Assembly: GCA_905203475.1 (NCBI GenBank)
Contig: CAJKWD010000002.1
Coordinates: 1,658-65,657 of the forward strand
Direction of reading: 5' to 3'
Length of the DNA: 64,000 nt
From: an uncultured Acholeplasmataceae bacterium
GTDB taxonomy: Bacteria; Bacillota_I; Bacilli_A; RF39; UBA660
A program made the position numbers and the translations under genes. Numbering within the stretch: the stretch's first letter is position 1; the number at the start of each line of letters is the position of its first letter. This document shows, in pieces, positions 12,128 to 53,680 of this stretch. A model generated the notes under the pieces. That model saw only the letters and a program-made list of their open reading frames with translations, ran no database searches and was not told the origin of the DNA.

Positions 12128-12311
12128 ATTATCTACTCCTATCGTAATATTATTATTTTATCACATATCGTTCATGAAGTTCTTTTTTTGTTTAGATGAT
12201 TTTGATAAAAAGTGTAAAGGAAACGGAATATTCATATCGATAACCATCGTCTTATCATTTACGAAATGTATAGGTACGTGATATAATAAAAAAAGAATAG
12301 GAGCGTTTGTT

Positions 12312-13019: not shown

Positions 13020-13043
13020 AGTAAAAAAAGTATAATTTTCAAA

Positions 13044-13073
13044 GGGGAAAAGCGAATTTTTTTCTCCTTTTTT
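13044..13073 (+). terminator. Rho-independent terminator
   Basis: ggggaaaa / ttttctcc stem (one G:U pair) followed by T6. Confidence 0.55.
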
Positions 13074-13139
13074 CTTGATTTTCTTTTCTTTTTTGAAAAA
13101 CTATAGTATAATGAATACTAGATTGTAGGAGATGATTTT

Positions 13140-14405: not shown

Positions 14406-14420
14406 GGAGGAAGAAAGTTT

Positions 14421-15536
14421 ATGTTAAATGGATTAGAAATGGATCAATTAGCAAAAATAAAGGTAATTGGTGTCGGTGGAGGTGGAAATAACGCCGTAAA
14501 CCGTATGATTGAGTCAGGAGTACAAGGGGTAGACTTTATTGTTGCAAATACAGATTTACAAGTTTTAAATAATTCAAAGTCACCAGTTAAGATTCAAATT
14601 GGTGCAGAACTTACAAATGGACTTGGAGCAGGAGCAAACCCTCAAGTAGGAAAAGAGGCTGCATTAGAGACAAAGGCAGAAATTGAAGCTGCTTTAGAAG
14701 GTGCTGATATGGTTTTCATCACTTGTGGTATGGGTGGTGGAACTGGTACAGGAGCAGCACCAGTTATCGCTGAAATTGCTCAAAATTTAGGAGCATTAAC
14801 AGTAGGTATTGTTACAAAGCCATTTTCATTTGAAGGAAAGAAAAGAATGAGCCAAGCATTAGCTGGGTTAGAAGAATTAAAGAAAAATGTAGATACATTA
14901 ATTGTAATACCAAATGATCGTTTAAGAGAAATTATCGATAAACAAACACCATTATTAGATTCATTTAAAGAAGTTGATAATGTATTAAGACGTGGAGTAC
15001 AATCAATTTCAGATTTAATTGCGGTTGCAGGGTTAATTAATCTAGATTTTGCTGACGTCAAAGCAGTTATGCAAAATCGTGGTAATGCTTTAATTGGTAT
15101 TGGTATGGGTGTTGGAGAAGATCGTGCTGCAGAAGCTGCTAGACAAGCAGTATCTAGTCCGCTTTTAGAGACAAGTATTGATGGAGCAACAGATGCTATT
15201 ATCAATGTAACAGGTGGCTCTAATTTAACATTATTTGAAGTAGAAGAAGCAGCTGATGTGATTCGTAAAAGTGCTAATACAGATATTAATACAATCTTTG
15301 GTGCTGTTATTAATGAAAACTTAAACGATGAAATTATTGTAACTGTTATTGCAACAGGATTTGAAGATGATGATAAAGTAAAAGATGCACAACATACATC
15401 TACAGAACAACAACCAAAAAGAGAAGATATTGCATTTACACGTAGTGAATTAAATCGTGATTTAGACACAGATGATGATTCGTCATCTAGCCCTGATATC
15501 GATATTCCTCCATTTTTAAGAAGAAGAGAATTTTAA
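14421..15536 (+). CDS. ftsZ: Cell division GTPase FtsZ
   Basis: [13 protein letters not shown], the GGGTGTG tubulin signature, and a C-terminal DIPPFLRRR peptide. Confidence 0.98.
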
Positions 15537-15557
15537 AAGGACATGTGTCCTTTTTTT
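15535..15557 (+). terminator. ftsZ terminator
   Basis: aaaaggac-atgt-gtcctttt hairpin followed by a T-run. Confidence 0.7.
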
Positions 15558-15630
15558 CTGTCAAATAGAGTAAAGTATAGTTGCAAATAGTAAATAAATT
15601 ATCCTTTTTGGAATATTTTGTCAAAAAAGC

Positions 15631-15659
15631 TTGTATTCTTTTTGGAAACATGATATATT
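15631..15659 (+). promoter_or_regulatory. Sigma-A-type promoter (TTGTAT-17-TATATT with TG extension)
   Basis: -35 at 15631-15636 and -10 at 15654-15659, with TG at 15651-15652. Confidence 0.45.
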
Positions 15660-15665
15660 TTAGTT

Positions 15666-15760
15666 GTAGGAAGAAATTCCTACGGGGATTCTACCCTGAA
15701 AAGGGTGGAGTAGTTTTAATTTCTACGACGGGTGGGAAGCGTATCTTCCCATCTTTTTTT
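15666..15760 (+). ncRNA. Candidate ~95-nt small RNA or leader of unknown class
   Basis: Sits between its own promoter and the terminator GGGAAG-cgtat-CTTCCC + T7 (15734-15760). Two hairpins (15675-15690 and 15691-15708). GGGTGG is duplicated (15703 and 15730), which allows alternative pairing with CTACCC. Confidence 0.35.
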
Positions 15761-15770
15761 GTTTAAATAA

Positions 15771-15777
15771 TTCGACA
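15771..15777 (-). promoter_or_regulatory. Spo0A box (TGTCGAA on the minus strand) overlapping the -35 region of the spoIIGA promoter
   Basis: TTCGACA is an exact reverse complement of the 0A-box core. TGaTATTTT extended -10 at 15796-15804. Confidence 0.45.
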
Positions 15778-15819
15778 TGATTTCAACAAGATACATGATA
15801 TTTTATTCATGGTGATGCT

Positions 15820-16602
15820 ATGAAAGTATATCTTGATCTTGTTTTTTTTATTAACTTTGGGTTTGATTTTATTCTTTTATTAAGTGTTTCTTATCTTTTA
15901 AAAAGAGGAAGTACAATTTTTTCTTGTATCAAAGGCGCTTTGGTAGGAGCACTATCCATTTTCTTTTTGTTTTTACCCTTAAACTCTTTTTCTTTATTTC
16001 TATTAAAAGGATTGGTTAGTGTTGTGATGATACTTGTAACATTTCATTATCAAAATAAACGCTATTTTATCAAAAATATGGTTTACTTATATTTAAATAG
16101 TATTGTCTTAGGTGGAGGGCTTTATTTTCTAAATGTACAATTTGCTATGAAGCAAAAGGGACTTATATTTTTTCACAATGGTGTTTCTTTGAATGTATGG
16201 TTGCTATTCATCTTATCGCCTATGATTCTTTATTTGTACTTAAAACAATTAAAGCAATTAAAAGTAAATTACGCATCGTATTATCAAGTATCATTTGTAT
16301 GGAAGAAAAAGAAATATCAAATGACTGCTTTTTTAGATACAGGAAATCAGATACAAGATCCGTATTTTAAGCGTCCAGTATTACTCATTAGTCCCAATGT
16401 TTTAAAAAACAAGATACAGTCACCAATTTATATTCCATACCATGCAGTCGGAAAAGATGGTATGCTTTCCTGTTTTTTATTAGATAGTATTCATATTGAA
16501 GGGGTAGGTGATCGTAAGAAAGTATTAGTAGGAATATTAGACGATAAAATAAGAATGGATGGAATAGAGATGATATTAGGAACAAAAGTATTGGAGGGTT
16601 AA
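15820..16602 (+). CDS. spoIIGA: Sigma-E processing aspartic peptidase SpoIIGA
   Basis: Five N-terminal TM segments, the FLDTGNQ active-site motif, and a position immediately upstream of sigE. Confidence 0.92.
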   Translation: MKVYLDLVFFINFGFDFILLLSVSYLLKRGSTIFSCIKGALVGALSIFFLFLPLNSFSLFLLKGLVSVVMILVTFHYQNKRYFIKNMVYLYLNSIVLGGGLYFLNVQFAMKQKGLIFFHNGVSLNVWLLFILSPMILYLYLKQLKQLKVNYASYYQVSFVWKKKKYQMTAFLDTGNQIQDPYFKRPVLLISPNVLKNKIQSPIYIPYHAVGKDGMLSCFLLDSIHIEGVGDRKKVLVGILDDKIRMDGIEMILGTKVLEG

Positions 16603-17295
16603 ATGTTAAAGAGAATATGGAATTTTTTAAAACAATTATTATGGGATGAGTATAATTTATTTTTTGTTGGAAGTAGTGATAAATTACCAGAACCATTATC
16701 TAGGGAAGAAGAAACAAAATACGTAGAACTTTCTATGCAAGGAGATGAAAAAGCACGGGCAAAATTAATTGAACATAATTTAAGATTGGTTGTATTCTTA
16801 TCAAAAAAATATGAAAATACAGGAATCGATTTAGAAGATTTAGTAAGTATTGGGACTATTGGATTAATTAAAGGAGTCAATACTTATAAACTAGATAAGA
16901 ATATTAAATTAGCAACCTATGCTTCTAGATGTATTGATAATGAAATTTTAATGTATTTAAGAAAAAATAAAAAGAGAAGGACAGAAATTAGTTTTGAAGA
17001 CAGTTTAAGTTATGATGGAGAAGGAAATGAGTTACATTTAGAAGATGTTTTAGGAACAGATGCGGACATTGTTACGAAAGGATTAGAAGAAGAAACAGAG
17101 AAGAAATTGTTATATCAAGAAATTGCTAAATTAAAGGGTAGAGATAAAGAAATTATGATATTAAGATATGGGTTATTTGGACAAAAAGAAAAGACTCAAA
17201 AAGAAGTAGCTACTATGTTAAATATTAGTCAATCATATATTTCTCGTATTGAAAAGAAAGTAATCAAACACTTAAAAGGAACGGTACAATCATAG
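16603..17295 (+). CDS. sigE: Sporulation sigma factor E (pro-sigma-E)
   Basis: Pro-sequence followed by LPEPLSREEE, NLRLVVFLSKKY, IGTIGLIKGVNTY and ISQSYISRIEKK. Confidence 0.95.
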   Translation: MLKRIWNFLKQLLWDEYNLFFVGSSDKLPEPLSREEETKYVELSMQGDEKARAKLIEHNLRLVVFLSKKYENTGIDLEDLVSIGTIGLIKGVNTYKLDKNIKLATYASRCIDNEILMYLRKNKKRRTEISFEDSLSYDGEGNELHLEDVLGTDADIVTKGLEEETEKKLLYQEIAKLKGRDKEIMILRYGLFGQKEKTQKEVATMLNISQSYISRIEKKVIKHLKGTVQS

Positions 17296-19241: not shown

Positions 19242-19266
19242 AAAAGTATCATAGGGAGTGGTTAAG

Positions 19267-20997
19267 GTGAAGATGTCAAAGAAAGCATTTACTTTAATTG
19301 AGTTAATTGGAGTAATTGCTGTTCTAGCGGTTATTTTACTTGTGGCATTACCTTCATTGACGAGAACATTACGTAATAATGCAAATCAGCAATATGAAAG
19401 TGTATTGAGTGATATTTTTTTAGCAGCAGAACAGTATACTTTAATAAATAAAGCGCAATTTCCTCAACTGGAAACACCAGGAGGAAGAGCTACTGTTACA
19501 ATTAAAGAATTAAAAGAAGCAGGTTATTTAAGTCAGAATTTAGAAAATCCAAAAACAGGAGAGAAGTTTCTAGACACAGATTATGTATTAATTGAAATAA
19601 ATAATGATTATACTAGAAATTACAAATTTAATGAAGGAGAAGCAACTGCAAGTCCTGATGCTACCGCACCTACTTATGCAGTAAATCCAGGAGCAGCAGT
19701 ATGGACCAATCAAGGCAAAACAGTAACTATTCATTATCCTGATGTTAGTAAAAACAGATATATATTTGAATATTCTCTAGATGGCGGAATCCATTGGACA
19801 ATAACACAAGAATTAAATACCGAAATATGGTTTTCTGAAAATGGTTCTATTATCGCACGAGTAAGAGATTCATATAATGAACGAGATAATTTAAATGGAG
19901 GAGTATTTAATGTAACAAGAATTGATAAGATACCCCCAACTTGTGTATCATCAGGAGGAAGTACTGAATGGACAAATGGTACAAGAAAGATTATTGGAGT
20001 ATGTAGTGATACAGGTGGATCCGGATGCAAAGGTAATATTTCATATACATATAATGCTGCAGAAAATACCAATTGGAATATTAATAACGCAGGACCAGCA
20101 GGAGCAGGACAGGCAGGGACTGTTTATGATAATGCTGGAAATAGTGCTCCATGTCAGGCCAATCAATCGATTCGTTTAGATCGAAAAAAACCAACATGTA
20201 CAAGTAGTGGTGGTAACTCTAATTGGGTAATAGGAGGATCTGTTAAATTAACTGGTACATGTAATGATGATGGCTCAGGATGTAAGGGAAATGTTACTAA
20301 GACGTTTTATCCAGAAACAGATACATCAACTGCATCTCCAGGAACTGTATATGATAAAGCTGGAAACAGTACAGTTTGCCCAGCCAACCAACATGTTCAT
20401 GTTACGAATAAATTAGATGCCCCAATTATTACGAATCCGACTGGAGGAAATTGGGTAAACTACAGTTATGCATTAACAGTAAAAACACCAAATAATAAAG
20501 TGAATGTCGCCTACTGGCAATGGCGATATGCAAACACGAGTTGGGCGACATATTCAAATTCCGCTAAAAACACATTTACAACTACTCAATACACAACAGA
20601 ACGTAATGAAGCAACATATATTCGTTATTGTATATCAAGTGGCCAATGTTCTTCTGAAGCGTCTACAATGATTCGTATTGATAAAACACCACCATATTGG
20701 AGAGTTGCAATGCATGCGGGAGGATACCATTATTCAGATGGATCTTATCAACCTTTTACCTGCTATGCGAAAATTGATATATATGATTCTGCTTCAGGAT
20801 TAGAAGGTATATATAATTTAGTTGGAAATTCTGGATCAATTATGATGGAACATGGTCCATTATATGGTGCTGCGGCAACAGGACCAGATGGATTTGTTAT
20901 GGGAAGCTTTGGTGCTTATTATGCATATTATGGATTCTCAGTTTGTGATATGGTAGGAAATTGTGCGAATCAACCAAGAGTTGCTGGATATTGTTAG
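19267..20997 (+). CDS. Large modular type IV pilin-like protein 1 (prepilin N-terminal cleavage/methylation domain plus 4-Cys modules)
   Basis: KKA|FTLIELIGVIAVLAVILL class III signal with Glu+5. A small pilin head is followed by two D..(P)PTC...GSGCKG...D(N/K)AGNS..C modules. The start is ambiguous (GTG 19258, GTG 19267 or ATG 19273); GGGAG RBS at 19254-19258. Confidence 0.85.
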   Translation: MKMSKKAFTLIELIGVIAVLAVILLVALPSLTRTLRNNANQQYESVLSDIFLAAEQYTLINKAQFPQLETPGGRATVTIKELKEAGYLSQNLENPKTGEKFLDTDYVLIEINNDYTRNYKFNEGEATASPDATAPTYAVNPGAAVWTNQGKTVTIHYPDVSKNRYIFEYSLDGGIHWTITQELNTEIWFSENGSIIARVRDSYNERDNLNGGVFNVTRIDKIPPTCVSSGGSTEWTNGTRKIIGVCSDTGGSGCKGNISYTYNAAENTNWNINNAGPAGAGQAGTVYDNAGNSAPCQANQSIRLDRKKPTCTSSGGNSNWVIGGSVKLTGTCNDDGSGCKGNVTKTFYPETDTSTASPGTVYDKAGNSTVCPANQHVHVTNKLDAPIITNPTGGNWVNYSYALTVKTPNNKVNVAYWQWRYANTSWATYSNSAKNTFTTTQYTTERNEATYIRYCISSGQCSSEASTMIRIDKTPPYWRVAMHAGGYHYSDGSYQPFTCYAKIDIYDSASGLEGIYNLVGNSGSIMMEHGPLYGAAATGPDGFVMGSFGAYYAYYGFSVCDMVGNCANQPRVAGYC

Positions 20998-21130: not shown

Positions 21131-22918
21131 ATGAGCAGTGAGATGCGATTGAAAAAGGGTTTTACATTAATTGAATTAATTGGAGTAATTGCTGTTTTAG
21201 CAGTTATTTTATTGATAGCACTTCCAACGATTACAAGCTCTGTTCGTCGTAATAATGAGCAAAAATACGCAAATACATTACAAGACATTTATTTAGCTGC
21301 AGAACAGTATACCCTAACTTATAAGGAAAAATTTCCTCAGTTAGATGAATCGGGTGGACGTGTAAAAGTTACGATAGCCGATTTGAAAGAAGCAGGTTAT
21401 TTAGATCAGCATTTAGAAAATCCTAAAACGGGGAAAGAATTTCTAGATACAGATTATGTATTAGTAGAAGTAGATAAAGATTATACAAGAAAATATAAAT
21501 TTAATGAAGGAGAAGAAACAAAAACCCCAGATACTACAGCACCTACTTATACTGTAAATCCAGGTGCAACTGTATGGACGAACAAAGGGAAGACAGTAAC
21601 GATTCATTACCCTAATGTCAGTAAAAATAGATATGTATTTGAATATTCTTTAGATGGTGGTGTCCACTGGATTGTAACCCAAGAATTAAATACAAATGTA
21701 TGGTTTGCCGATAATGGCAATATTATCGCAAGAGTTAGGGATACATACAACGAGCGCGAAAGCCTCAATGGAGGAGTATTTAATGTAACAAAAATTGATA
21801 AAATTCCACCAACATGTAAGAGTTCTGGAGGAAGTAATGATTGGACTGGGGGCTCAAGAACAATTACAGGAATATGTAGCGATACTGGTGGTTCTGGTTG
21901 CAAAGGGAACATCTCTTATACATATAATGGAACTACAGGAGAAAATTACAGTATTACCAATGCCGGACCAGCTGGAGTTGGAAAAGCGGGTGTTGTTTAT
22001 GATAATGCTGGAAATAGTGCTACTTGTCAGGCCAATCAAACAGTAAAGATTGATAAGAAAGCACCGACTTGTACGACAAGTAAGAAAGTAAATACAAGTT
22101 CTGTAACAATTACTGGAACTTGTAGTGATACAGGTGGCTCTGGATGTAAAGGAAATGCCACTAAAACCGTAACTGCTAATGGAAGTTATTCACCAGGTAG
22201 TGTTTCTGATAATGTTGGTCATACTACTACTTGTCCATCGACAAATGTAACGGAAGTAGATAAAACACCGCCAAATTGTCCAACTGTTACAGCAGACCAT
22301 ACAGCCAATAAATGGACAAAAGATAATGTGGTATTAACAATTACCCCAACAAGTGATACGAAAAGTTGGGATTGGTATAGAGGAGAAGGAAACGGAACAT
22401 ATACCTATGTTGATAACAATACTGGAAAGAAAACCAAAACATTATCTAATTCCGGAAAAATATCTGGACAAATCGTCGTTCGTGATGCTGCAGGAAATAG
22501 CCGTACATGTTTTACATCTAGTTATTGGATTGATAAAGTAAAACCATTATCACCAAAATATTCTAGTATTGAGATATCTGGAGGAACCGTGACATCAAAT
22601 GATTGTGGAGGAAAAGGTGGAACAGCGTCTGATGTAAGTTGTACCATTAATATTAGAGGAAGAAGATATAGTGCAGTTAGTTTTGAATTTAATACAGTTG
22701 AAAAAGATCAACATTCAGGAGTAAGTTATTCACAATATAAATGGAATCACAATGGAAGTGGAACAAAATGTCCAAACTGGTTTACAGGAGATTGTGGAGA
22801 TTGGAAGGCTGGAGTTGGAGGAACATTTACATATACGGATTTCGCATGGCGAAGTGTAGATAACGTTGGAAATGCAGGATATGCATTAAATATTAGAGTT
22901 AATTTTACATGGTATTAA
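21131..22918 (+). CDS. Large modular type IV pilin-like protein 2
   Basis: MSSEMRLKKG|FTLIELIGVIAVLA. The N-terminal ~330 aa are homologous to protein 1. The C-terminal ~322 aa are identical to protein 3. Confidence 0.9.
   Translation: MSSEMRLKKGFTLIELIGVIAVLAVILLIALPTITSSVRRNNEQKYANTLQDIYLAAEQYTLTYKEKFPQLDESGGRVKVTIADLKEAGYLDQHLENPKTGKEFLDTDYVLVEVDKDYTRKYKFNEGEETKTPDTTAPTYTVNPGATVWTNKGKTVTIHYPNVSKNRYVFEYSLDGGVHWIVTQELNTNVWFADNGNIIARVRDTYNERESLNGGVFNVTKIDKIPPTCKSSGGSNDWTGGSRTITGICSDTGGSGCKGNISYTYNGTTGENYSITNAGPAGVGKAGVVYDNAGNSATCQANQTVKIDKKAPTCTTSKKVNTSSVTITGTCSDTGGSGCKGNATKTVTANGSYSPGSVSDNVGHTTTCPSTNVTEVDKTPPNCPTVTADHTANKWTKDNVVLTITPTSDTKSWDWYRGEGNGTYTYVDNNTGKKTKTLSNSGKISGQIVVRDAAGNSRTCFTSSYWIDKVKPLSPKYSSIEISGGTVTSNDCGGKGGTASDVSCTINIRGRRYSAVSFEFNTVEKDQHSGVSYSQYKWNHNGSGTKCPNWFTGDCGDWKAGVGGTFTYTDFAWRSVDNVGNAGYALNIRVNFTWY
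21950..22917 (+). repeat. 968-bp direct repeat, copy A (3' end of pilin-like gene 2)
   Basis: Reading both copies side by side, I found no mismatch to 25637-26604 (offset 3687). Identity ends at the third base of the stop codon (TAA versus TAG). Confidence 0.9.
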
Positions 22919-23902: not shown

Positions 23903-26605
23903 ATGAGCAGTGGGATACGAATAAAAAAAGGATTTACATTAATTGAATTATTAGCTGTGATTGTAATTATTGCCGTGATTGCGTTGATCACATATCCAAC
24001 GGTTAATCGCGTAATTACCAATTCCAGGATGACAGCACTAAAAAATAGTGCTGAAGCATTATTGAAAGAAACAAATTTGCAAACAGCGATGGATAAAGTG
24101 GAAGGAAATACGCAAATTTTAATTACCGATGAAAGATTAAAATTAAAAAATAATCAATTTATTGGTGGTTTTATTTTTAAGAATGCAAATGGAAAATTAG
24201 AATTAAAAAATGTGACAAATGGATCATTTTGTATCAATGGAACAAGTGGAAATTTAAAAATTGAAAAAGGAAACTGTAGCTATTCAGATACTTCTGCCCC
24301 AACATTGACACTACAAACTGGATATATTGGTGCGACAGAAGCAATGGTACTTGCTAACGGATCTGATAATGAATCTGGCATTCGTGGATATGAATATAAA
24401 ATAGGGGATGGAAGTTATACTAAAGTATTAGGTAGTAATTTTTATCAATTTGAAGGATTAAAGAGAAATACAAGTTATAAAGTAACAGTCAGAGTCACAA
24501 ATGGAGCTGGTCTTACAACTGAAAAAAGCATTACATTTAAAACGAAAAGTATATCAGCAGCTACATTTATAGTGAGTGGTGCTTCAAAGTGGACAAATAA
24601 AAAAGATGTAACGATTAATTATCCAACCAGAGTAAGTGGCGTTACATATCGTTATAAAATAGGCAGTGGTAATTGGCAAGTACTTACGAGTGGTAAGAAA
24701 AAAGAGTTAGAAGTAAAAGAGAATACAACAATTTATGCAGAAGTGATATTAAATGGAGAAACAGTGAGTTCAAATGTTAGTATTACAAAAATAGATAATA
24801 CACCACCTGTTATTACAAGCATTAAACCAAATACAACATCTTGGGCACGTCAAGTAACGATTCAAGTCATTGCCACAGATACTCCATCTGGAATTGCTGG
24901 ATATTCATTTGACGATGGAGCAACATGGACAAGTGCCCCAACATATACTACAACTAAAAATGGAACTTATAAAATTAAAGTAAAAGATTATGCGAATAAC
25001 ATCGCAAGTGGGAAAATCACTATTAAAAATATCGATAGAACAGGACCTAAATGTGTTAGTAGTGGTGGAAGTAAGACGTGGACAAATCAATCGAGAACGA
25101 TTGTTGGTACTTGTATCGATGATGGAGAAGGTGCAGGATGTGTTTCCAAAACAGTTTCTAAGACAATTAGTACTGACGCTAATGCAACTATGTCACCAGG
25201 TGTTGTAAAAGATGAAGCAGGAAATGAAACAACATGTCCAGCTACTGAAGTTGTTAGAGTAGATAAAACAAAACCAACATGTACTGTATCCTTGAGTAAT
25301 ACAAATTGGACAAATAAAGCAGTTACTGCATATGGTAAGTGTCAAGATTCACTAAGTGGTTGTATAACAAATAATCTTAAGAAAGAATATACAACACAGA
25401 TGAATGATAAAGTAACTTTAGGTACAGTAAAAGATAAAGCTGGAAATGAGACAAATTGTACTTCTAGCCAAAATATCAAAATAGATACAACTCCTCCTAC
25501 TTGTACATCTTCTGGAGGAAGTACTGTTTGGACTAGTGGAACAAGAACAATTACCGGAGTATGTAATGATACTGGTGGTTCTGGATGTAAGGGTAATATT
25601 TCATATACATATAATGGAACTTCCGGTCAAAACTATAGTATTACCAATGCCGGACCAGCTGGAGTTGGAAAAGCGGGTGTTGTTTATGATAATGCTGGAA
25701 ATAGTGCTACTTGTCAGGCCAATCAAACAGTAAAGATTGATAAGAAAGCACCGACTTGTACGACAAGTAAGAAAGTAAATACAAGTTCTGTAACAATTAC
25801 TGGAACTTGTAGTGATACAGGTGGCTCTGGATGTAAAGGAAATGCCACTAAAACCGTAACTGCTAATGGAAGTTATTCACCAGGTAGTGTTTCTGATAAT
25901 GTTGGTCATACTACTACTTGTCCATCGACAAATGTAACGGAAGTAGATAAAACACCGCCAAATTGTCCAACTGTTACAGCAGACCATACAGCCAATAAAT
26001 GGACAAAAGATAATGTGGTATTAACAATTACCCCAACAAGTGATACGAAAAGTTGGGATTGGTATAGAGGAGAAGGAAACGGAACATATACCTATGTTGA
26101 TAACAATACTGGAAAGAAAACCAAAACATTATCTAATTCCGGAAAAATATCTGGACAAATCGTCGTTCGTGATGCTGCAGGAAATAGCCGTACATGTTTT
26201 ACATCTAGTTATTGGATTGATAAAGTAAAACCATTATCACCAAAATATTCTAGTATTGAGATATCTGGAGGAACCGTGACATCAAATGATTGTGGAGGAA
26301 AAGGTGGAACAGCGTCTGATGTAAGTTGTACCATTAATATTAGAGGAAGAAGATATAGTGCAGTTAGTTTTGAATTTAATACAGTTGAAAAAGATCAACA
26401 TTCAGGAGTAAGTTATTCACAATATAAATGGAATCACAATGGAAGTGGAACAAAATGTCCAAACTGGTTTACAGGAGATTGTGGAGATTGGAAGGCTGGA
26501 GTTGGAGGAACATTTACATATACGGATTTCGCATGGCGAAGTGTAGATAACGTTGGAAATGCAGGATATGCATTAAATATTAGAGTTAATTTTACATGGT
26601 ATTAG
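23903..26605 (+). CDS. Large modular type IV pilin-like protein 3 (900 aa)
   Basis: MSSGIRIKKG|FTLIELLAVIVIIAVIAL. Pilin head, then FN3/Ig-like modules (SGIRGYEYKIGDG.., SGIAGYSFDDGATW), four 4-Cys modules, and a C-terminus shared with protein 2. Confidence 0.9.
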   Translation: MSSGIRIKKGFTLIELLAVIVIIAVIALITYPTVNRVITNSRMTALKNSAEALLKETNLQTAMDKVEGNTQILITDERLKLKNNQFIGGFIFKNANGKLELKNVTNGSFCINGTSGNLKIEKGNCSYSDTSAPTLTLQTGYIGATEAMVLANGSDNESGIRGYEYKIGDGSYTKVLGSNFYQFEGLKRNTSYKVTVRVTNGAGLTTEKSITFKTKSISAATFIVSGASKWTNKKDVTINYPTRVSGVTYRYKIGSGNWQVLTSGKKKELEVKENTTIYAEVILNGETVSSNVSITKIDNTPPVITSIKPNTTSWARQVTIQVIATDTPSGIAGYSFDDGATWTSAPTYTTTKNGTYKIKVKDYANNIASGKITIKNIDRTGPKCVSSGGSKTWTNQSRTIVGTCIDDGEGAGCVSKTVSKTISTDANATMSPGVVKDEAGNETTCPATEVVRVDKTKPTCTVSLSNTNWTNKAVTAYGKCQDSLSGCITNNLKKEYTTQMNDKVTLGTVKDKAGNETNCTSSQNIKIDTTPPTCTSSGGSTVWTSGTRTITGVCNDTGGSGCKGNISYTYNGTSGQNYSITNAGPAGVGKAGVVYDNAGNSATCQANQTVKIDKKAPTCTTSKKVNTSSVTITGTCSDTGGSGCKGNATKTVTANGSYSPGSVSDNVGHTTTCPSTNVTEVDKTPPNCPTVTADHTANKWTKDNVVLTITPTSDTKSWDWYRGEGNGTYTYVDNNTGKKTKTLSNSGKISGQIVVRDAAGNSRTCFTSSYWIDKVKPLSPKYSSIEISGGTVTSNDCGGKGGTASDVSCTINIRGRRYSAVSFEFNTVEKDQHSGVSYSQYKWNHNGSGTKCPNWFTGDCGDWKAGVGGTFTYTDFAWRSVDNVGNAGYALNIRVNFTWY
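25034..26218 (+). repeat. Tandem ~70-90-aa 4-Cys modules within gene 3
   Basis: Module starts are at 25034, 25262, 25484, 25739 and 25946. Each reads D..(P)P.C ... G.C.D..(S)GC ... D.AGN...C. Confidence 0.7.
25637..26604 (+). repeat. 968-bp direct repeat, copy B (3' end of pilin-like gene 3)
   Basis: See copy A. Confidence 0.9.
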
Positions 26606-33212: not shown

Positions 33213-33830
33213 CTATAATTTACGATATAGTCCAATAGCAATTCCTAAAATAGATACTTGATCCAAGATGATTGGATCCATTGTATCATTTTCTGGTTGT
33301 AATCTAAAATAGTTTGATTCTTTATAAAATGTTTTTAAAGTTACTTCGTTTTCTTCTGTCATAGCTACTACAATTTGTCCATTACGGGCTGTATTTTGTC
33401 TTTCGACAATGACGATATCACCATCTAATATTCCTGCATTAATCATACTTTCTCCGCTAACTTTCAAAGTAAATACTTCCTTGTTTTTAGGAATTAAGTA
33501 AGCGGGTAGGGAAAAGTATTCTCCAGGATTTTGAATTGCCTCAATTGGACTTCCAGCGGTAATTTTTCCCAGTAATGGAACTTCTACTACTTCCTCTTCC
33601 TTTTTGGCATATTCATTATCGACAAGTAGTTCGATAGCACGATTTTTTGTTTCTTTTCTACGAATAACACCTTTTTCTTCTAAGTTTTCTAAATGTGCAT
33701 GAATTGTTGCTGGACTAGATACCCCTAATGATGCGCCAATTTCTCTTACAGTTGGGGGATATCCATATTTAACAATATATGATTTAATGAAGTTTAAGAT
33801 TTCATTTTGACGTTTCGTCAATTCTTTCAT
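33213..33830 (-). CDS. lexA: SOS repressor LexA
   Basis: YPPTVREIG..., the SGESM catalytic Ser and VVAMT..EVTLK Lys region, 205 aa. Confidence 0.96.
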   Translation of the reverse strand: MKELTKRQNEILNFIKSYIVKYGYPPTVREIGASLGVSSPATIHAHLENLEEKGVIRRKETKNRAIELLVDNEYAKKEEEVVEVPLLGKITAGSPIEAIQNPGEYFSLPAYLIPKNKEVFTLKVSGESMINAGILDGDIVIVERQNTARNGQIVVAMTEENEVTLKTFYKESNYFRLQPENDTMDPIILDQVSILGIAIGLYRKL

Positions 33831-33857: not shown

Positions 33858-33886
33858 AGTATAGCATGTAAAATGTAAAAAGTCAA
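33858..33886 (-). promoter_or_regulatory. lexA promoter (TTGACT-17-TATACT on the minus strand)
   Basis: -35 at 33881-33886 and -10 at 33858-33863. The degenerate LexA box overlaps the -35. Confidence 0.6.
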
Positions 33887-33897
33887 ACATTTGTTTG
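33884..33897. promoter_or_regulatory. Degenerate LexA (Cheo) box CAAACATTTGTTTG
   Basis: 8 of 10 defined positions match CGAAC-N4-GTTCG, and the two mismatches are symmetric. Confidence 0.5.
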
Positions 33898-33906
33898 TGT
33901 TTGCTA

Positions 33907-33935
33907 TTGACACGAACAAGTGTTCGTAGTAAGAT
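33907..33935 (+). promoter_or_regulatory. Promoter TTGACA-17-TAAGAT whose spacer contains the perfect LexA box
   Basis: -35 at 33907-33912 and -10 at 33930-33935. Confidence 0.6.
33913..33926. promoter_or_regulatory. Perfect LexA (Cheo) box CGAACAAGTGTTCG
   Basis: Exact match to the Gram-positive SOS-box consensus CGAAC-N4-GTTCG, located in the lexA divergent intergenic region. Confidence 0.85.
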
Positions 33936-33960
33936 AAAAACAGAAAGAGGAGGTTGTTGT

Positions 33961-34107
33961 ATGAAAGAATTATTAAAAAACAAATTTGTGATTGGATTTT
34001 TAGCTTTTATTGTAACATTTACTTATATGAGTTCAATGAGCCAACAAAAAATGGAAGAGGATGTGATGAAGTCGGAACGAGAATATGTTGCGATGAATGT
34101 AAAATAA
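33961..34107 (+). CDS. 48-aa single-TM peptide, candidate SOS-induced cell-division inhibitor (yneA/sosA position)
   Basis: GAGGAGG RBS upstream of ATG 33961. MKELLKNKFVIGFLAFIVTFTYM(TM)SSMSQQKMEEDVMKSEREYVAMNVK. Transcribed from the LexA-box promoter. Confidence 0.6.
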   Translation: MKELLKNKFVIGFLAFIVTFTYMSSMSQQKMEEDVMKSEREYVAMNVK

Positions 34108-34178
34108 TTTCTGTAGAAATCAATTTACTAATATAATCGATACATGTTATAATAAATTTAAGAATAGAGGGGATTTCT

Positions 34179-36179
34179 ATGACAATGGAAGAATTAATTA
34201 TTCGCAATATAAAAACTTTAGGAATTGATATGATAAAACAGGCAGGAAGTGGACATCCAGGAATTGTATTGGATGCTGCTCCGATGATGTATACTTTGTT
34301 CTCGAAGCATCTACTGTTTAATGTCAATGATCCACACTGGTTGAATCGTGATCGTTTTGTGTTATCTTCTGGTCATGGTTCTGCACTTTTGTATGCGACG
34401 ATGTATTTATGTGGGTATCATTTATCATTAGATGATTTAAAGCAATTTCGTAAGTATGGTTCTAAAACACCAGGGCATCCAGAATATGGGGTGACTGAAG
34501 GTGTAGAGGTTTCAACTGGACCTTTAGGACAAGGAATTGCTACAGCAGTAGGGTTGGCCTTAGGAGAAAAAATATTAGAGAATCGTTTTTTAATACATCG
34601 TACAGATAAAAAGAACAAAATGGAAAAGATGTTTGATTATCATGTTTATTGTCTATGTGGAGATGGCGATTTGATGGAGGGAATTGCACAGGAGGCAATT
34701 TCTTTAGCTGGTTCTTGGAAATTAAATAATTTAATTGTATTATACGATTGCAATTCTATTAGCTTAGATGGTGATACGAAACACACATTAGATGAAGATA
34801 TTTTAAAACGTTTTGAAGCTTGTGGTTGGGAAACGCTTTCTGTATCAAATGGGAATGATGTTAAAGATATTGATCGTGCTTTGGATAAGGCAAAACGTTC
34901 TTCAATGCCAACGATTATTCGCGTAAAAACGAAAATCGGAGAAGGTTCTCTTTTAGAAGGAACAAATGCAGTCCATGGAAAAGTATTAGATGACCAGGAT
35001 ATGGCACAGTTAAAGCAAAAATTAGGTATGCCAGATACTCCATTTTATGTCCATGATGGAGCAAAAAATACATTTACAGCAGCTTTAGCACAGCATACAA
35101 GTGCGAAATATCAAGAGTGGGCGAATGAATATCGTCAGTATCAACAAGAAACGGGAGAAGAATTACCAAAAGAATTAAAATTTCTATTGAATCGTGAAGA
35201 TGAGATTGATTTAAGCAAGAAGGAATGGGTGCTTCCTGATCCTGAGGATAAGATTGCTTCTCGTGATTTAAACCATATGGTATTAGAAGAATTAGCAAAG
35301 TCTTACGACTATTTAATTGGAGGAAGTGCTGATTTAGCATCTTCTACTAAAACGTATTTAAAAGATTATCCTGACATTTTAAATGAAACTCATTATCTTG
35401 GAAAAAATATATGGTTTGGAGTACGTGAACATGCTATGGGGGCTATTTTAAATGGTTTAGCACTTACAGGATTTCATCCATATGGCTCTACATTCTTATC
35501 TTTTTCTGACTATTTAAAACCGGCTTTGCGTATGTCTGCTTTGATGAGTTTACCAGTTACTTATATCTTTACACATGATGATATTACGATAGGCAGTGAT
35601 GGCCCAACTCATCAACCAATTGAGCAACTAGCCACTTTACGAGCAACACCAAATCTCGATGTCTATCGTCCTTGCGATATGAAAGAAATCATTGGTTGTT
35701 GGAATGAAATACTGAAGCAAAATAAACCAAGTGCATTAATTTTATCGAAAAATCCAGTGACGACTGTGATTTCATCAGATATTGAAAAAGTACATTTTGG
35801 TGCCTATATAATCGCTCCGGAGAGAAGTGTATTACATGCAATTTTAATAGCCACTGGTCCAGAAGTACAAACTGCACTACGATTAAAAGAAAAATTATAT
35901 CATGAGCAAGGAATCGACATTCGTGTTGTTAGTATGGTATGCATGGAGAAATTTTTAGAACAACCAAAAGAATATCAAGATGAGATTTTAACACCATATA
36001 TCAAAACATTTGTGTTAGAATATTCTTCTTCTTTAAGCTGGTATCGTTTTGTTTACAATGATAAATTCTTATTTACAATTGATACGTTTGGTGCAAGCGG
36101 TTCGAAAGATGATATTTTAAAAGCGCATCGATTAGATTTTGATTCAGTATTACAGAGAATGATTGAATTAATTAAGTAG
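34179..36179 (+). CDS. tkt: Transketolase
   Basis: SGHPG, a GDGDLMEG-type TPP motif (CGDGDLMEGI), and GSDGPTHQPIEQL. Confidence 0.97.
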   Translation: MTMEELIIRNIKTLGIDMIKQAGSGHPGIVLDAAPMMYTLFSKHLLFNVNDPHWLNRDRFVLSSGHGSALLYATMYLCGYHLSLDDLKQFRKYGSKTPGHPEYGVTEGVEVSTGPLGQGIATAVGLALGEKILENRFLIHRTDKKNKMEKMFDYHVYCLCGDGDLMEGIAQEAISLAGSWKLNNLIVLYDCNSISLDGDTKHTLDEDILKRFEACGWETLSVSNGNDVKDIDRALDKAKRSSMPTIIRVKTKIGEGSLLEGTNAVHGKVLDDQDMAQLKQKLGMPDTPFYVHDGAKNTFTAALAQHTSAKYQEWANEYRQYQQETGEELPKELKFLLNREDEIDLSKKEWVLPDPEDKIASRDLNHMVLEELAKSYDYLIGGSADLASSTKTYLKDYPDILNETHYLGKNIWFGVREHAMGAILNGLALTGFHPYGSTFLSFSDYLKPALRMSALMSLPVTYIFTHDDITIGSDGPTHQPIEQLATLRATPNLDVYRPCDMKEIIGCWNEILKQNKPSALILSKNPVTTVISSDIEKVHFGAYIIAPERSVLHAILIATGPEVQTALRLKEKLYHEQGIDIRVVSMVCMEKFLEQPKEYQDEILTPYIKTFVLEYSSSLSWYRFVYNDKFLFTIDTFGASGSKDDILKAHRLDFDSVLQRMIELIK

Positions 36180-36197
36180 GAGTTTCCTACTTTTTTT
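36175..36197 (+). terminator. Rho-independent terminator
   Basis: agtagga-gtt-tcctact followed by T6. Confidence 0.75.
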
Positions 36198-36243
36198 GTA
36201 TGATTTCGACACTCCTATATGTTTAAATAAGAATGGTGATGGG

Positions 36244-36651
36244 ATGAGAACATATTATTTATTTTTAATTCAAGGTGAGATTGCAAATACATTAGAAGAA
36301 AAAGAATTCGAACTATATTATATGTTAAAACGAATCATAGAAGGAAAAGAGGAAACAATTTCATACCGTATTCCTTGTTATTTACAACTTTGTAAATCAT
36401 GGCCTAAAGAGGTCTTAAATCACTATTTTACGACGAAATATCCACATTCGAAAAAGAAATATGATTATGAAATTGCAGGAGATTCTTATCTCATTCGCTC
36501 TAGTTATTTAAAGATTGTAACCTCTAAAACAATTCCTGGTATCTTTCGTTTATTAAATTATATGGACCCCTATATTTTTGTGTGTGATTTTGAAAATGGA
36601 GATTATTTTTATTTGAAAGCATTTATGAATCATATAAAAATAAAATCATAA
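36244..36651 (+). CDS. SirA (YneE)-like sporulation inhibitor of replication
   Basis: 135 aa. The N-terminal YYLFLIQGEIAN resembles B. subtilis SirA YYTYLIKEEFAN. The tkt-sirA-yneF synteny matches Bacillus. Confidence 0.5.
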   Translation: MRTYYLFLIQGEIANTLEEKEFELYYMLKRIIEGKEETISYRIPCYLQLCKSWPKEVLNHYFTTKYPHSKKKYDYEIAGDSYLIRSSYLKIVTSKTIPGIFRLLNYMDPYIFVCDFENGDYFYLKAFMNHIKIKS

Positions 36652-50251: not shown

Positions 50252-50270
50252 ATAAATATATTAAATGTCT

Positions 50271-50461
50271 GTGTGAAGGAGTACATGATTTATTTTAATA
50301 AAGAGACTATGTGGTTGGTGGAAACATAGATAAAAGAATCGTGGAAGACATCATACGTTAAGAACATACGTGTGCTCGCGTTAAGAGATGAGAGTATAGA
50401 CTAGTCTATGAATTAAGGTGGCACCGCGGGGTAACTCGTCCTTAAGTCATGGGCTTTTTTA
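50271..50461 (+). promoter_or_regulatory. T-box riboswitch leader, tRNA-Asp specific (specifier GAC at 50347-50349)
   Basis: Stem I was folded by hand: guguga/ucauac lower helix, AGGAGUA 5' loop, caugauuu/gaaucgug upper helix, and 3' loop GAA-GAC-A. AGAGA bulge and distal loop are present. T-box sequence AAUUAAGGUGGCACCGCG at 50411-50428, with UGGC pairing to a G73 discriminator. U-run at 50455-50460. Confidence 0.85.
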
Positions 50462-50482: not shown

Positions 50483-51022
50483 GTGCAGATACAAGATGTA
50501 ATAGAAAAAAGAAGAAGTATTAGACATTATTTAGATACGAGTTTGCGTGAAGAAGATATTGCCCGTATTTTAAAAGCTGGGACTTTAGCACCTTCTGCTC
50601 ACAATAAACAACCATGGTTTATACATGTAGTGGAAAATGAAGATTTAAAAAATAAAATAGCAGATATATTGATGCAAAAAGAAGATGCAAGCATTCAAAA
50701 TACGGCTCGTATTATAAAAGAAGCTCCTGTTTTATTTGTTGTTTTCGAAGAGAAAACAGATTTGAGTGTAAAGATGCAACAACAATCGCTTGGTGCTTTT
50801 ATGGAAAACATGTGTTTAGAAGCAACTGCACTAGGAATTGGAAGTTTATGGATAGGTCATATTTTAGAAGTAGAAAAAGAAGTAAAGCAATTATTTCACG
50901 AGAAAAGAAAAGTGGCTTGTGCTATGACACTCGGTTATACAGATGCTAATCCAAGTCCAAGACCACGTAAGAGTTTAAAAGATATGATACAGATTCATGA
51001 TGAAGAGGAGGAAGTAGAATGA
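50483..51022 (+). CDS. Nitroreductase-family protein
   Basis: GTG start with an AAAGGTGG RBS. IEKRRSIRHY, APSAHNKQPW. Confidence 0.85.
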   Translation: MQIQDVIEKRRSIRHYLDTSLREEDIARILKAGTLAPSAHNKQPWFIHVVENEDLKNKIADILMQKEDASIQNTARIIKEAPVLFVVFEEKTDLSVKMQQQSLGAFMENMCLEATALGIGSLWIGHILEVEKEVKQLFHEKRKVACAMTLGYTDANPSPRPRKSLKDMIQIHDEEEEVE

Positions 51023-52371
51023 TACAGAAACCAAAAGGAACATATGATGTATATGGTGAATATGGAGAAAAAATTCAATATTTAGAAAAGTTATTAAGTG
51101 CATTAATGGAAAAATATCACTATGAATTTGTTCGTACTCCTATTTTTGAAGCAAGTTCATTATTTCATAGAGGTGTAGGTGAAACGACAGATATTGTTAG
51201 TAAAGAGACATATGATTTTAAGGATCGTGGAAATCGTGATATGACTTTACGCCCAGAGGGAACTGCAGGAGTAGTACGTTCTTTTATTGAGAATAAAATG
51301 TATACACGTGCTAGTATGCCTGTCAAAGCATGGTATTATGGACCAATGTTTCGCTACGAAAGACCACAAGCAGGACGTTTTCGCGAATTCTATCAATTTG
51401 GTGTAGAAGTTTTTGGTAGTACTAGTCCTATGTTAGATGCTGAAGTGATCAGTATTCCTGTTACATTATTCCGTTTATTAGGGCTAAAAGGAGTAAAAGT
51501 AAAGATTAATAGTTTAGGAGACAGAGAATCAAGAACAGCATATCGTGAAGCATTATTAAAGCATTTTAAACCACATTTAAACGAACTATGTCACGATTGT
51601 CAAGAACGATATCTGAAGAATCCACTTCGTATTTTAGATTGCAAAGTAGATCGTGAATTAGAATGCATGCAAAAAGCTCCGAAATTAAGTGATTACTTAT
51701 CAGAACAATCAAAACAACATTTTGAAGCATTAAAACAATATTTAGATGCCTTAAACATTGATTATACAGTTGATGAACATTTAGTTAGAGGATTAGATTA
51801 CTATACAGAAACAGTATTTGAAGTAGAGGCAGATATTAAAGATTTTGGAAGTAATAATGTCCTTTGTGCCGGGGGACGATATAATCATTTAGTAGAAAAC
51901 TTAGATGGCCCTTCTACACCTGGAGTAGGTTTTGCTCTTGGCTATGAAAGAATCTTAAATGCAATTGAAGCAGAGGGAATCGAGTTAGAGAATGAAAATC
52001 AAGTCGATGTATATATGATTCCAATGAGTGATAAAACAAAGACGGAAGCATTTTGTTTAACACAAACATTACGTATGAATGGTTTTACGGCGGAAACAGA
52101 TTATTTAAATCGTACTTTAAAAGGAAACTTTAAACAAGCAGACCGTCTAAGAGCAAAATTTATTGTATTATTAGGTGAAGATGAGCAAAAAGAACATATT
52201 TATACAATTAAGAACAATCAGACGAAAGAAGAATATAAAATTGATCAAGATTATATTGTTATGTTTTTAGATGAAAAATTAGAAGAAATAGAAGTAGGAA
52301 GTAGTGAACATACATGTCAACATAATCATGAATGTCATTGCCATGAAGGAGGTTGTCAACATCATGAGTAG
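51019..52371 (+). CDS. hisS: Histidyl-tRNA synthetase with a C-terminal His/Cys-rich tail
   Basis: RPEGTAGVVR, YYGPMFRYERPQAGRFREF, GGRYN, GFALGYER. The tail is SEHTCQHNHECHCHEGGCQHHE. Confidence 0.95.
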   Translation: MIQKPKGTYDVYGEYGEKIQYLEKLLSALMEKYHYEFVRTPIFEASSLFHRGVGETTDIVSKETYDFKDRGNRDMTLRPEGTAGVVRSFIENKMYTRASMPVKAWYYGPMFRYERPQAGRFREFYQFGVEVFGSTSPMLDAEVISIPVTLFRLLGLKGVKVKINSLGDRESRTAYREALLKHFKPHLNELCHDCQERYLKNPLRILDCKVDRELECMQKAPKLSDYLSEQSKQHFEALKQYLDALNIDYTVDEHLVRGLDYYTETVFEVEADIKDFGSNNVLCAGGRYNHLVENLDGPSTPGVGFALGYERILNAIEAEGIELENENQVDVYMIPMSDKTKTEAFCLTQTLRMNGFTAETDYLNRTLKGNFKQADRLRAKFIVLLGEDEQKEHIYTIKNNQTKEEYKIDQDYIVMFLDEKLEEIEVGSSEHTCQHNHECHCHEGGCQHHE

Positions 52372-53680
52372 AATTACCATCAAAGAATTAGAAAATCATA
52401 TTGGAGAAACAGTAGAAGTACAAGCTTTTATAGCTAATATTAGAGATTTACAATACGTTCAATTTGTCATTTTAAGAGATGGAACTGGAACAATTCAAAT
52501 GACAATTGAAAAAAGTGAAGAAAAAAATAAAGAGTTTGTTGAACTCATTAGTAATACCACTTTAGAAAGTACAATCAAAGCAAAAGTACTTGTTTCTAAA
52601 AATGAGAAAGTAAAATTACGTGGTATGGAATTGATACCAGAAACGATTGAAATTACAAGTAAATCTTTACCAGAACTTCCAATTGATATCAAAGATAAGG
52701 ATAAAACATTGCGAGAAACCAGATTAGATTATCGTTTTTTAGATTTACGTCGTGATGATAATCATTTGCTTTTTCAAGCTGAAACCATTTTTGAACACGC
52801 AGCAAGAGAGTTTTTCTTAAAAAATAATTTTATAGAAATACATAGTCCAAAAATTAGTGCAAAAGCAGCTGAAAGTGGAGCAGAAGTATTTCATTTGGAT
52901 TATTTTGGACAAGAAGCATGTCTATCTCAATCACCACAGTTTTATAAACAAATGGCTATGGCCAGTGGTTTTGATCAAGTATTTGAGATTGGTCCTGCTT
53001 TTCGTGCTGAAAATTCTCATACTTCTTATCATGCAACAGAAATTAATATGTTGGATGTAGAAGCAAGTTGGTTATCAGATGAAAATGAAGTGATGAATAT
53101 TGAAGAAAATTTATTAAAATATATGTTTACACGTTTAAAAGAAACTTATGGCAAGGAAATTGAAGAGACCTTCCATGTGACTTTAAGTGATGTCAGTGTT
53201 AAATTCCCTCGTATTACGTTTCAGGAAGCAAAAAGAATTTTAAAAGAGGAAATGAATTTTGTAGGGGAGAGAACAGATGATTTTGAAAGACACGAAGAAG
53301 AATTGTTATGTCAGTATGCAAAGGAAAAGTATGGCAGTGATTTTATCTTTGTAACAAAATTCCCATTTGCTGCTCGTCCTTTCTATCATATGTTGGATGA
53401 AAATGGTCTTACAAAAAGTTATGACTTGTTATTTAAGGGAGTTGAAATTACGACTGGAGCAATTCGTGAACATCGTATTGATCAATTGACAAAACAAATT
53501 ATTGAGAAAGAAATTGATCCAAAATCATTAGAATTTTATTTAGAATTTTTCAAATACGGATGTCCACCACACGGTGGGTTTGCAATTGGAATTGCTCGTA
53601 TGATGATGGAAATTTTTGAAATCGATAATATTCGTGAAGCAACATTTATTTATCGTGGACCAACGAGGTTAAACCCATAA
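52364..53680 (+). CDS. aspS: Aspartyl-tRNA synthetase, short archaeal/eukaryal type (type 2, 438 aa)
   Basis: OB-fold N-terminus, LSQSPQFYKQ (the Asp-specific QSPQ), FRAENSHTSYHATE and GGFAIGIARMMM. No GAD insertion. The start overlaps the hisS stop codon (ATGAGTAG). Confidence 0.85.
   Translation: MSRITIKELENHIGETVEVQAFIANIRDLQYVQFVILRDGTGTIQMTIEKSEEKNKEFVELISNTTLESTIKAKVLVSKNEKVKLRGMELIPETIEITSKSLPELPIDIKDKDKTLRETRLDYRFLDLRRDDNHLLFQAETIFEHAAREFFLKNNFIEIHSPKISAKAAESGAEVFHLDYFGQEACLSQSPQFYKQMAMASGFDQVFEIGPAFRAENSHTSYHATEINMLDVEASWLSDENEVMNIEENLLKYMFTRLKETYGKEIEETFHVTLSDVSVKFPRITFQEAKRILKEEMNFVGERTDDFERHEEELLCQYAKEKYGSDFIFVTKFPFAARPFYHMLDENGLTKSYDLLFKGVEITTGAIREHRIDQLTKQIIEKEIDPKSLEFYLEFFKYGCPPHGGFAIGIARMMMEIFEIDNIREATFIYRGPTRLNP

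Follow-up and report, generated by a model that had tools for sequence, protein, structure and literature searches.

A 48-residue membrane peptide encoded divergently from lexA under a conserved LexA operator: a candidate miniature SOS division inhibitor of uncultured gut Bacillota

What is the role of a gene for a 48-residue membrane peptide that stands back to back with lexA and carries a perfect LexA operator inside its promoter? The question is raised by a 64-kb stretch of DNA from contig CAJKWD010000002.1 of an uncultured Acholeplasmataceae bacterium, here called the window (G+C content 31%). Small membrane proteins which are induced in the SOS response and inhibit cell division are thought to be widespread, and a handful of them, namely YneA, SosA, ChiZ, DivS and SidA, have been characterised. 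Such inhibitors escape annotation almost entirely, as their sequences have so little in common. Here, we describe an unannotated family of at least 243 clusters at 50% identity, which has no name beyond 'hypothetical' and whose hosts are abundant uncultured Bacillota (class Bacilli) of animal guts. The gene is real, conserved and tightly coupled to a conserved LexA operator. From its position, its regulation and the architecture of its product we infer division inhibition, and the peptide is most likely a miniature, unannotated version of the division brake of the YneA/SosA type. To the reading that it is an SOS checkpoint peptide which blocks a late step of septation, probably via FtsW, and is removed afterwards, we assign a probability of about 0.6.

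The elements of the locus on which this reading is built are the following:
33213..33830, minus strand: lexA, open reading frame (ORF) of 205 amino acids (aa), Pfam LexA_DNA_bind (1.1e-25) and Peptidase_S24 (6e-34)
33886..33858, minus strand: lexA promoter, TTGACT (33886-33881), 17-nt spacer, TG-extended TATACT (33863-33858)
33884-33897, unstranded: LexA box 1, CAAACATTTGTTTG, with two symmetric mismatches, overlapping the -35 of lexA
33907-33935, plus strand: peptide promoter, TTGACA (33907-33912), 17-nt spacer, TAAGAT (33930-33935)
33913-33926, unstranded: LexA box 2, CGAACAAGTGTTCG, a perfect CGAAC-N4-GTTCG which fills the spacer of the peptide promoter
33947-33953, plus strand: ribosome-binding site GAGGAGG, 7 nt 5' of the ATG at 33961
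33961-34107, plus strand: peptide gene, ORF of 48 aa, MKELLKNKFVIGFLAFIVTFTYMSSMSQQKMEEDVMKSEREYVAMNVK, divergent from lexA

The translation of lexA contains the Ala-Gly cleavage site (ITAG) and the Ser/Lys motifs (GESM, TLKTF), and its promoter reached 10 of 12 matches in the promoter scan, with TG ahead of the -10. Both divergent promoters are of the sigma-A type and lie within the 130-bp intergenic region between lexA and the peptide gene. By its place over the -35 of lexA, box 1 reads as an autoregulatory operator. A preliminary description of this DNA had named the perfect SOS box in the spacer between TTGACA and TAAGAT, the degenerate symmetric box over the -35 of the minus-strand lexA promoter, and the GAGGAGG sequence with the 48-aa ORF behind it; all of these are present as described, and the peptide sequence it gave is exact.

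Taken by count, the operator would say little. Box 2 is the sole match in the window, even with one mismatch permitted, and at this tolerance 0.29 matches are expected in the window by chance and 27 of 100 shuffles contain at least one. A lone box in 64 kb is by count alone not significant; it is the position and the conservation of box 2 that make it so. Nine other sites in the window with two mismatches look like chance and were rejected as LexA boxes; the palindrome at 42059 lies inside a MurJ/SpoVB-like gene.

Related loci were collected by a scan based on LexA with one genome per species, which delivered 80 loci, 79 of them informative, with LexA identities of 64-83%. Their sources are uncultured gut bacteria which carry the labels Bacilli, 'Tenericutes' or Erysipelotrichaceae. 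A divergent ORF of 42-57 aa stands beside lexA in 67 of the 79 informative species; the preliminary description had proposed a search for homologs at this place, and this equivalent peptide is its outcome. The distance between the start codons of lexA and the peptide gene is nearly constant (median 134.5 nt), all 68 loci have a Shine-Dalgarno sequence which matches over at least 4 nt at the equivalent place, and the same divergent arrangement was recovered in independent contigs. Like the window peptide, the related peptides start with a basic N-terminus, which is followed by one hydrophobic helix and then a polar tail. The ratio of non-synonymous to synonymous substitution rates (dN/dS) is 0.09-0.41 in all 26 comparable pairs, and the changes are concentrated at third codon positions. 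Since the ORF is conserved across species and its dN/dS values indicate purifying selection, it is a real protein-coding gene, and the conservation among relatives that the preliminary description had asked about is found. The gene 3' of the peptide gene varies by locus (tkt, a yneF-type UPF0154 gene and several other ORF types), and the peptide gene therefore travels with lexA and not with tkt.

The operator follows the gene through these species. In 64 of 68 loci, a box with at most two mismatches precedes the first ORF of the peptide operon by 43-58 nt; from the background of 0.085 per kb in these loci, about 0.14 such boxes would be expected in all 68 search windows together. TTGACA adjoins the box in 64/68 loci, TAnnnT stands 3 nt past the box in 65/68, an extended -10 TG was seen in 51/68, and the arrangement of TTGACA, box, TG and -10 is preserved in 64/68. 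An equivalent of box 1 with at most two mismatches, most commonly CAAACATTTGTT[CT]G, precedes the lexA start by 46-66 nt in the majority of the 80 loci. In contrast, box 2 is missing in 11 of the 12 loci without a peptide (Fisher p 1.5e-9), where at most the lexA-proximal box 1 is left. By this pattern, the operator is under selection jointly with the peptide gene. The LexA operator embedded in the peptide promoter, first noticed in the window alone, is thus conserved in more than 60 species and lost along with the gene. The species without the peptide are those of loci L026, L029, L030, L040, L045, L046, L058, L064, L067, L072, L077 and L080; in L058 a tRNA-like sequence fills the slot upstream of lexA.

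The family is much larger than a simple protein search would suggest. With the single sequence, merely five near-identical peptides were returned. A profile of 35 peptides gave 112 clusters at 90% identity, all of 42-70 aa, none with a Pfam domain or with a name other than 'hypothetical', and an exhaustive HMMER search of 1.84 billion representatives gave 243 clusters at 50% identity (E <= 1e-3). Among the 150 matches listed from the exhaustive search, the length is 29-76 aa for all but one, and no added domain was found in them. The sole long match (P0221, 98 aa) was considered as a domain-bearing version and rejected, as it looks like a frameshift or a chimera. Searches of Pfam, NCBIfam and PHROGs with the window peptide gave no match above noise, no Rfam family matched in the peptide region, and no paralogue of the peptide is encoded within the 64 kb.

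The window peptide consists of a basic N-terminus (residues 1-8), a membrane helix at about residues 9-26 and an acidic or polar tail at about residues 27-48. The mean net charge is +2.65 on the N-side and -2.15 on the C-side, with the N-side higher in 67 of 68 peptides. Because of this bias, a single-pass topology with the N-terminus inside and the C-terminus outside is predicted, the same as in YneA and SosA. AlphaFold2, run with the family alignment, returned one continuous helix from residue 8 to 46, with a predicted local distance difference test score (pLDDT) of 95 in the membrane part and about 60 in the tail. Within the peptide, conservation is lowest in the tail and highest in the membrane helix. 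The single transmembrane helix with a short charged tail, proposed earlier from the translation, agrees with a hydrophobic core at residues 9-25, with the charge bias and with the AlphaFold2 model, from which the single-pass architecture is predicted.

The small SOS-induced membrane proteins which inhibit division in Gram-positive bacteria and have their genes next to lexA have been defined as a class (PMC6851548), and the window locus shares its features: a gene divergent from lexA, an operator in the promoter and a single helix with a C-terminus predicted to be extracellular. For comparison, lexA regions of Staphylococcus, Macrococcus, Jeotgalicoccus/Salinicoccus, many Bacillaceae, Planococcaceae and Listeria were taken and the divergent genes extracted. 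These encode SosA proteins of 70-77 aa, LysM-less proteins of 67-104 aa and YneA proteins of about 100-110 aa with LysM. Among the loci listed (16 Staphylococcus sosA loci, 9 Macrococcus loci and Bacillus yneA loci), the distance to the lexA start is 53-70 nt for box 1 and 82-100 nt for box 2, the latter adjoining TTGAC. In the window, box 1 is at +53 and box 2 at +82. It follows from this shared two-box layout that the regulatory region is homologous and that the peptide gene stands in its yneA/sosA slot; the parallel with these genes had been drawn in the preliminary description.

SosA of Staphylococcus aureus (77 aa) resembles the window peptide in several respects. It is encoded divergently from lexA with box 1 over the lexA promoter and box 2 adjoining the -35, it is a LysM-less protein which crosses the membrane once, by an N-terminal helix, and exposes its C-terminus outside the cell (PMC6851548), and a long helix reaching out of the membrane is predicted for it as well ('extended helix', PMC13396833). 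However, the window peptide has 48 instead of 77 aa and lacks the motif EQTYEMTDH, which is conserved next to the membrane in SosA. YneA of B. subtilis and Listeria (about 103-110 aa) agrees in the slot beside lexA, in topology and in LexA control, whereas the window peptide has neither its LysM domain nor the yneB-ynzC operon partner. SidA of Caulobacter crescentus (29 aa) is likewise an SOS-induced membrane peptide with no other domain; it belongs to a Gram-negative host and is likened here by description. Its targets are late divisome proteins and not FtsZ (PMC6851548). For YneA, the membrane helix binds the seventh transmembrane helix (TM7) of FtsW, and the same is predicted for SosA, ChiZ and SidA (PMC13396833).

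A further likeness concerns the last few residues, which read ...YVAMNVK in the window peptide, ...PVMASVK in SosA and ...QLAMNNK in a YneA from a locus labelled Rossellomorea or Lysinibacillus. A hydrophobic-[AG] pair stands 3-9 residues from the C-terminus in 92% of YneA and 100% of SosA/Macrococcus proteins, versus 18-30% of shuffled tails. In the family of mini-peptides the corresponding value is 31% versus 15% (p 0.0015), which is a lead and not evidence. The pair may be a shared tag for the CtpA-type protease that is reported to degrade YneA and SosA.

Several observations weigh against a division brake of the YneA/SosA kind. A third operator about 28 nt before the ATG is present in sosA and yneA loci and absent from the window family. 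The loss of the peptide gene in 12 of the 79 relatives means that it is dispensable. Its LexA control, its very small size and its single membrane helix with no recognisable domain would also suit a membrane toxin, to which we return below. In profile comparisons with hhalign, the subfamily of the window peptide ('mini1') reached a probability of at most 6% against YneA, SosA, Macrococcus and Jeotgalicoccus proteins (5.1% against 93 YneA sequences, 5.8% against SosA); as calibration, SosA against YneA gave 60%, and reversed-profile controls reached E 2.2e-4. Finally, the window peptide is without the LysM domain of YneA: no Pfam match was found, and a tail of about 22 aa could not accommodate one. 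YneA needs LysM for inhibition, while its membrane domain alone localises and does not block division (PMC13396833). Since the YneA helix alone is inactive, the mini-peptide would have to inhibit by a different mechanism, more like that of SosA or SidA.

The profile comparisons also bear on the origin of the peptides. A second subfamily from distant loci ('mini2'; divergent from lexA in L047, L049, L052 and L055-L079) matched the N-terminus and membrane helix of YneA with an hhalign probability of 93% and E 2.7e-7, better than the controls. The mini2 motif is MKKxWxKYgG...LNxRFxYLN, and the match to YneA includes the cytoplasmic MKKxWxKY and thus goes beyond hydrophobicity. A link between mini1 and mini2 (probability 53%, E 1.4e-4) was not counted, as the reversed-profile controls come this far. 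It is therefore plausible that mini2 arose from YneA by losing LysM, and mini1 may or may not share this origin. Because of the resemblance of mini2 to the N-terminus and membrane helix of YneA, the mini-peptides may be diverged, LysM-less YneA descendants and not an independent invention. The earlier statement that the peptide has no LysM and no similarity to YneA or SosA stands, in the sense that no reliable similarity was found; its description as a possible distinct family has to be softened in view of mini2.

Members of the family were also found outside the lexA neighbourhood. The weakest profile matches (P0098-P0112, 48-51 aa) are prophage genes, and a homologue of 49 aa is located in four regions:
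L083:3789-4150, prophage peptide region
L249:3574-3989, prophage peptide region
L250:1650-2065, prophage peptide region
L251:821-1236, prophage peptide region

Here, the peptide gene belongs to an early operon after integrase, cI-like and cro-like repressor genes and is followed by ERF/SSB replication and recombination genes; it overlaps an upstream ORF of 72-90 aa (phrog_6058). No prophage copies were found in IMG/VR, either by protein or by a degenerate DNA pattern. The membrane core of the prophage peptide, ALVVMMLGVSYITALDN, is identical in 17 of 17 aa to that of P0063, a chromosomal lexA-adjacent peptide from the same sample series, whereas 9 of the 51 nt of the core differ, all of them synonymously, and the N-terminus and tail are unrelated. 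This amino-acid identity despite synonymous divergence shows that the membrane helix is sequence-specific, as would be expected for docking onto a protein partner. The kil gene of phage lambda is located in the early operon, and the position of the prophage homologues just after the cro-like gene in an early lytic operon resembles it, which we count in favour of an action on division. Kil differs in acting on FtsZ through ZipA, and it has no sequence relation to the window peptide. Its effect is a block of host cytokinesis (PMC3961180).

At four chromosomal loci (L044 at about 845-1031, L048, L053 and L054), a small ORF, MEYYTINDIQILTGY..., lies between box 2 and the peptide gene and overlaps the peptide start. 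It has 62 aa in three of these loci and 68 aa in L053, with weak excisionase-like, helix-turn-helix or PHROG matches alone. Judged from the sequence, the insertion makes a two-gene SOS operon with a layout as in the prophage version. A tentative and rather doubtful extension of our reading is that the peptides (42-57 aa) are the smallest SOS checkpoint effectors of Gram-positive bacteria, derived from YneA by LysM loss, with a sequence-specific membrane helix and a short extracellular helix sufficing to switch off the septal wall synthase. Temperate phages of these hosts would have taken over the membrane-helix module and, on induction, would produce it from the early operon to halt host division, and host checkpoint and phage takeover would share one interchangeable mini-inhibitor.

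Damage induction, topology, target, division block and turnover, as we infer them, would combine into the following sequence of events. In undamaged cells, LexA dimers would occupy the two operators, which are 29 bp apart in the 130-bp intergenic region; box 1 over the -35 of lexA would provide autoregulation, and box 2 in the spacer of the near-consensus promoter would keep the peptide gene off. Upon DNA damage, LexA self-cleavage stimulated by RecA would free the peptide promoter, and an mRNA with a short leader and a strong ribosome-binding site would give a burst of the 48-aa peptide. The peptide would enter the membrane with the N-terminus inside and the C-terminus outside. Its helix would dock sequence-specifically on a late divisome component, for which FtsW is the best precedent, and the extracellular helical tail of about 22 residues would disturb the building of the septal wall, a mode of action already put forward for SosA, which also lacks LysM. 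Cells would put off division until LexA has built up again and the peptide has been broken down, perhaps by a protease of the CtpA type. The target machinery is present in the window, with murG, murB, divIB, ftsA and ftsZ at 9.5-15.5 kb and murF at 37.7 kb, and we count these classical divisome and wall synthesis genes in favour of the division-brake reading.

The alternative which survives best, although we regard it as unlikely, is an SOS-induced membrane toxin of the TisB/DinQ type, which would depolarise the membrane or lower ATP and so lead to dormancy instead of acting on the divisome. TisB and DinQ of E. coli are controlled by a LexA box and have a single membrane helix, like the window peptide, and the dispensability of the gene in 12 of 79 relatives fits a toxin. 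Both are accompanied by antisense or small RNA antitoxins and have long processed leaders. The window locus has neither a conserved antisense promoter nor a long leader, although a small RNA may still be encoded there, and TisB and DinQ are unlinked to lexA. An antisense promoter-like site within the ORF (34036..34009, minus strand, TTGAAC-16-TACAAT with TG) was considered as an antitoxin promoter and rejected; since relatives do not share it, the match probably arose by chance in AT-rich DNA. Antisense sites of this kind are scattered, occurring in 9 of 68 loci versus 18 of 68 on the sense strand, and none is conserved. In contrast to the mRNAs of type I toxins, the leader is short, lacks structure and presents a strong, exposed ribosome-binding site. 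The conserved polar tail of about 22 aa and the strict residues of the helix speak for a protein partner and against general membrane damage, and the gene keeps a constant place, the yneA/sosA slot, with an operator layout shared with yneA and sosA. With TisB and DinQ, LexA-regulated membrane peptides of this kind have precedents (PMC2577331, PMC3567139).

Still less probable in our view is a secreted peptide, with the N-terminus as signal peptide and a C-terminal part of about 20 aa released as a damage-induced signal or antimicrobial. The basic n-region, the hydrophobic core and the small residues (SSMS) right after it would suit such a precursor, and the best match in the family libraries is the NprX pheromone precursor of NCBIfam (NF033800). 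However, this match reaches 17.6 bits, far under the cut-off of 75 bits, and is confined to the hydrophobic stretch (NF033801: 13.3 versus 33). The hydrophobic segment of 17-20 residues has the length of a membrane helix, the residues behind it are not kept as a cleavage site across the family, and the tail is the least conserved part and the helix the most conserved, the opposite of what is expected for a released bioactive peptide.

The neighbourhood 3' of the peptide gene contains the following features:
34124..34153, plus strand: promoter-like site ahead of tkt, TTTACT-18-TATAAT
34179-36179: tkt, next gene 3' of the peptide gene
36196-36651: SirA-like ORF 3' of tkt, Pfam SirA 23.4 bits, under the cut-off of 26

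A UPF0154/yneF gene comes after the SirA-like ORF. The neighbourhood of yneA likewise goes on into tkt, a sirA-like gene and yneF, and the gene order that had been proposed for the window was found, with the SirA-like ORF as a weak match. In L045, an ORF resembling the SirA-like ORF of the window comes directly after lexA, and the peptide gene and tkt are missing there. That the LexA promoter mainly serves the downstream gene (tkt here), with the small ORF as a leader or accessory without a division activity of its own, is hardly probable: no convincing terminator was found between the ORF and tkt (folding of 34085-34185, z = -0.82), so that read-through is possible, but a promoter-like site of its own precedes tkt, peptide and box stay in place where relatives have other downstream genes, the dN/dS values reflect selection on the amino-acid sequence itself, and the prophage copies stand in an unrelated context.

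Other parts of the window give a picture of the host. From 9524 to 17295, murG, murB, divIB (with POTRA), ftsA, ftsZ, spoIIGA and a sigma factor gene at the sigE position follow each other in the order of B. subtilis, and on the basis of this division, wall and sporulation cluster the host is a walled and probably spore-forming member of the Bacillota. Related metagenome-assembled genomes are labelled 'Tenericutes' despite the walled-type gene set seen in the window. Three large paralogous ORFs (19258-20997, 21131-22918 and 23903-26605) have repeat blocks of 134-300 nt in common, with 61-89% identity; the largest (23903-26605) has an N-terminal pilin-type methylation motif and DUF7743, and the other two are without a Pfam match. 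One further regulatory element is recorded:
50265-50446: T-box leader, 110.5 bits, 5' of an aminoacyl-tRNA synthetase pair resembling hisS-aspS (51019-53680)

The notable aspects of the family of the window peptide are its minimal size, its breadth in uncultured gut Bacillota, the possible descent from YneA and the phage-borne copies. The operator layout (lexA, box 1, 29 bp, -35 with box 2, small membrane-protein gene) is a better search key for such inhibitors than protein similarity. If the proposed function is true, a peptide of 45 residues would be a minimal tool for studying how an FtsW-type synthase is switched off. The phage-borne copies would then tie the DNA-damage checkpoint of the host to the control of host division by phages.

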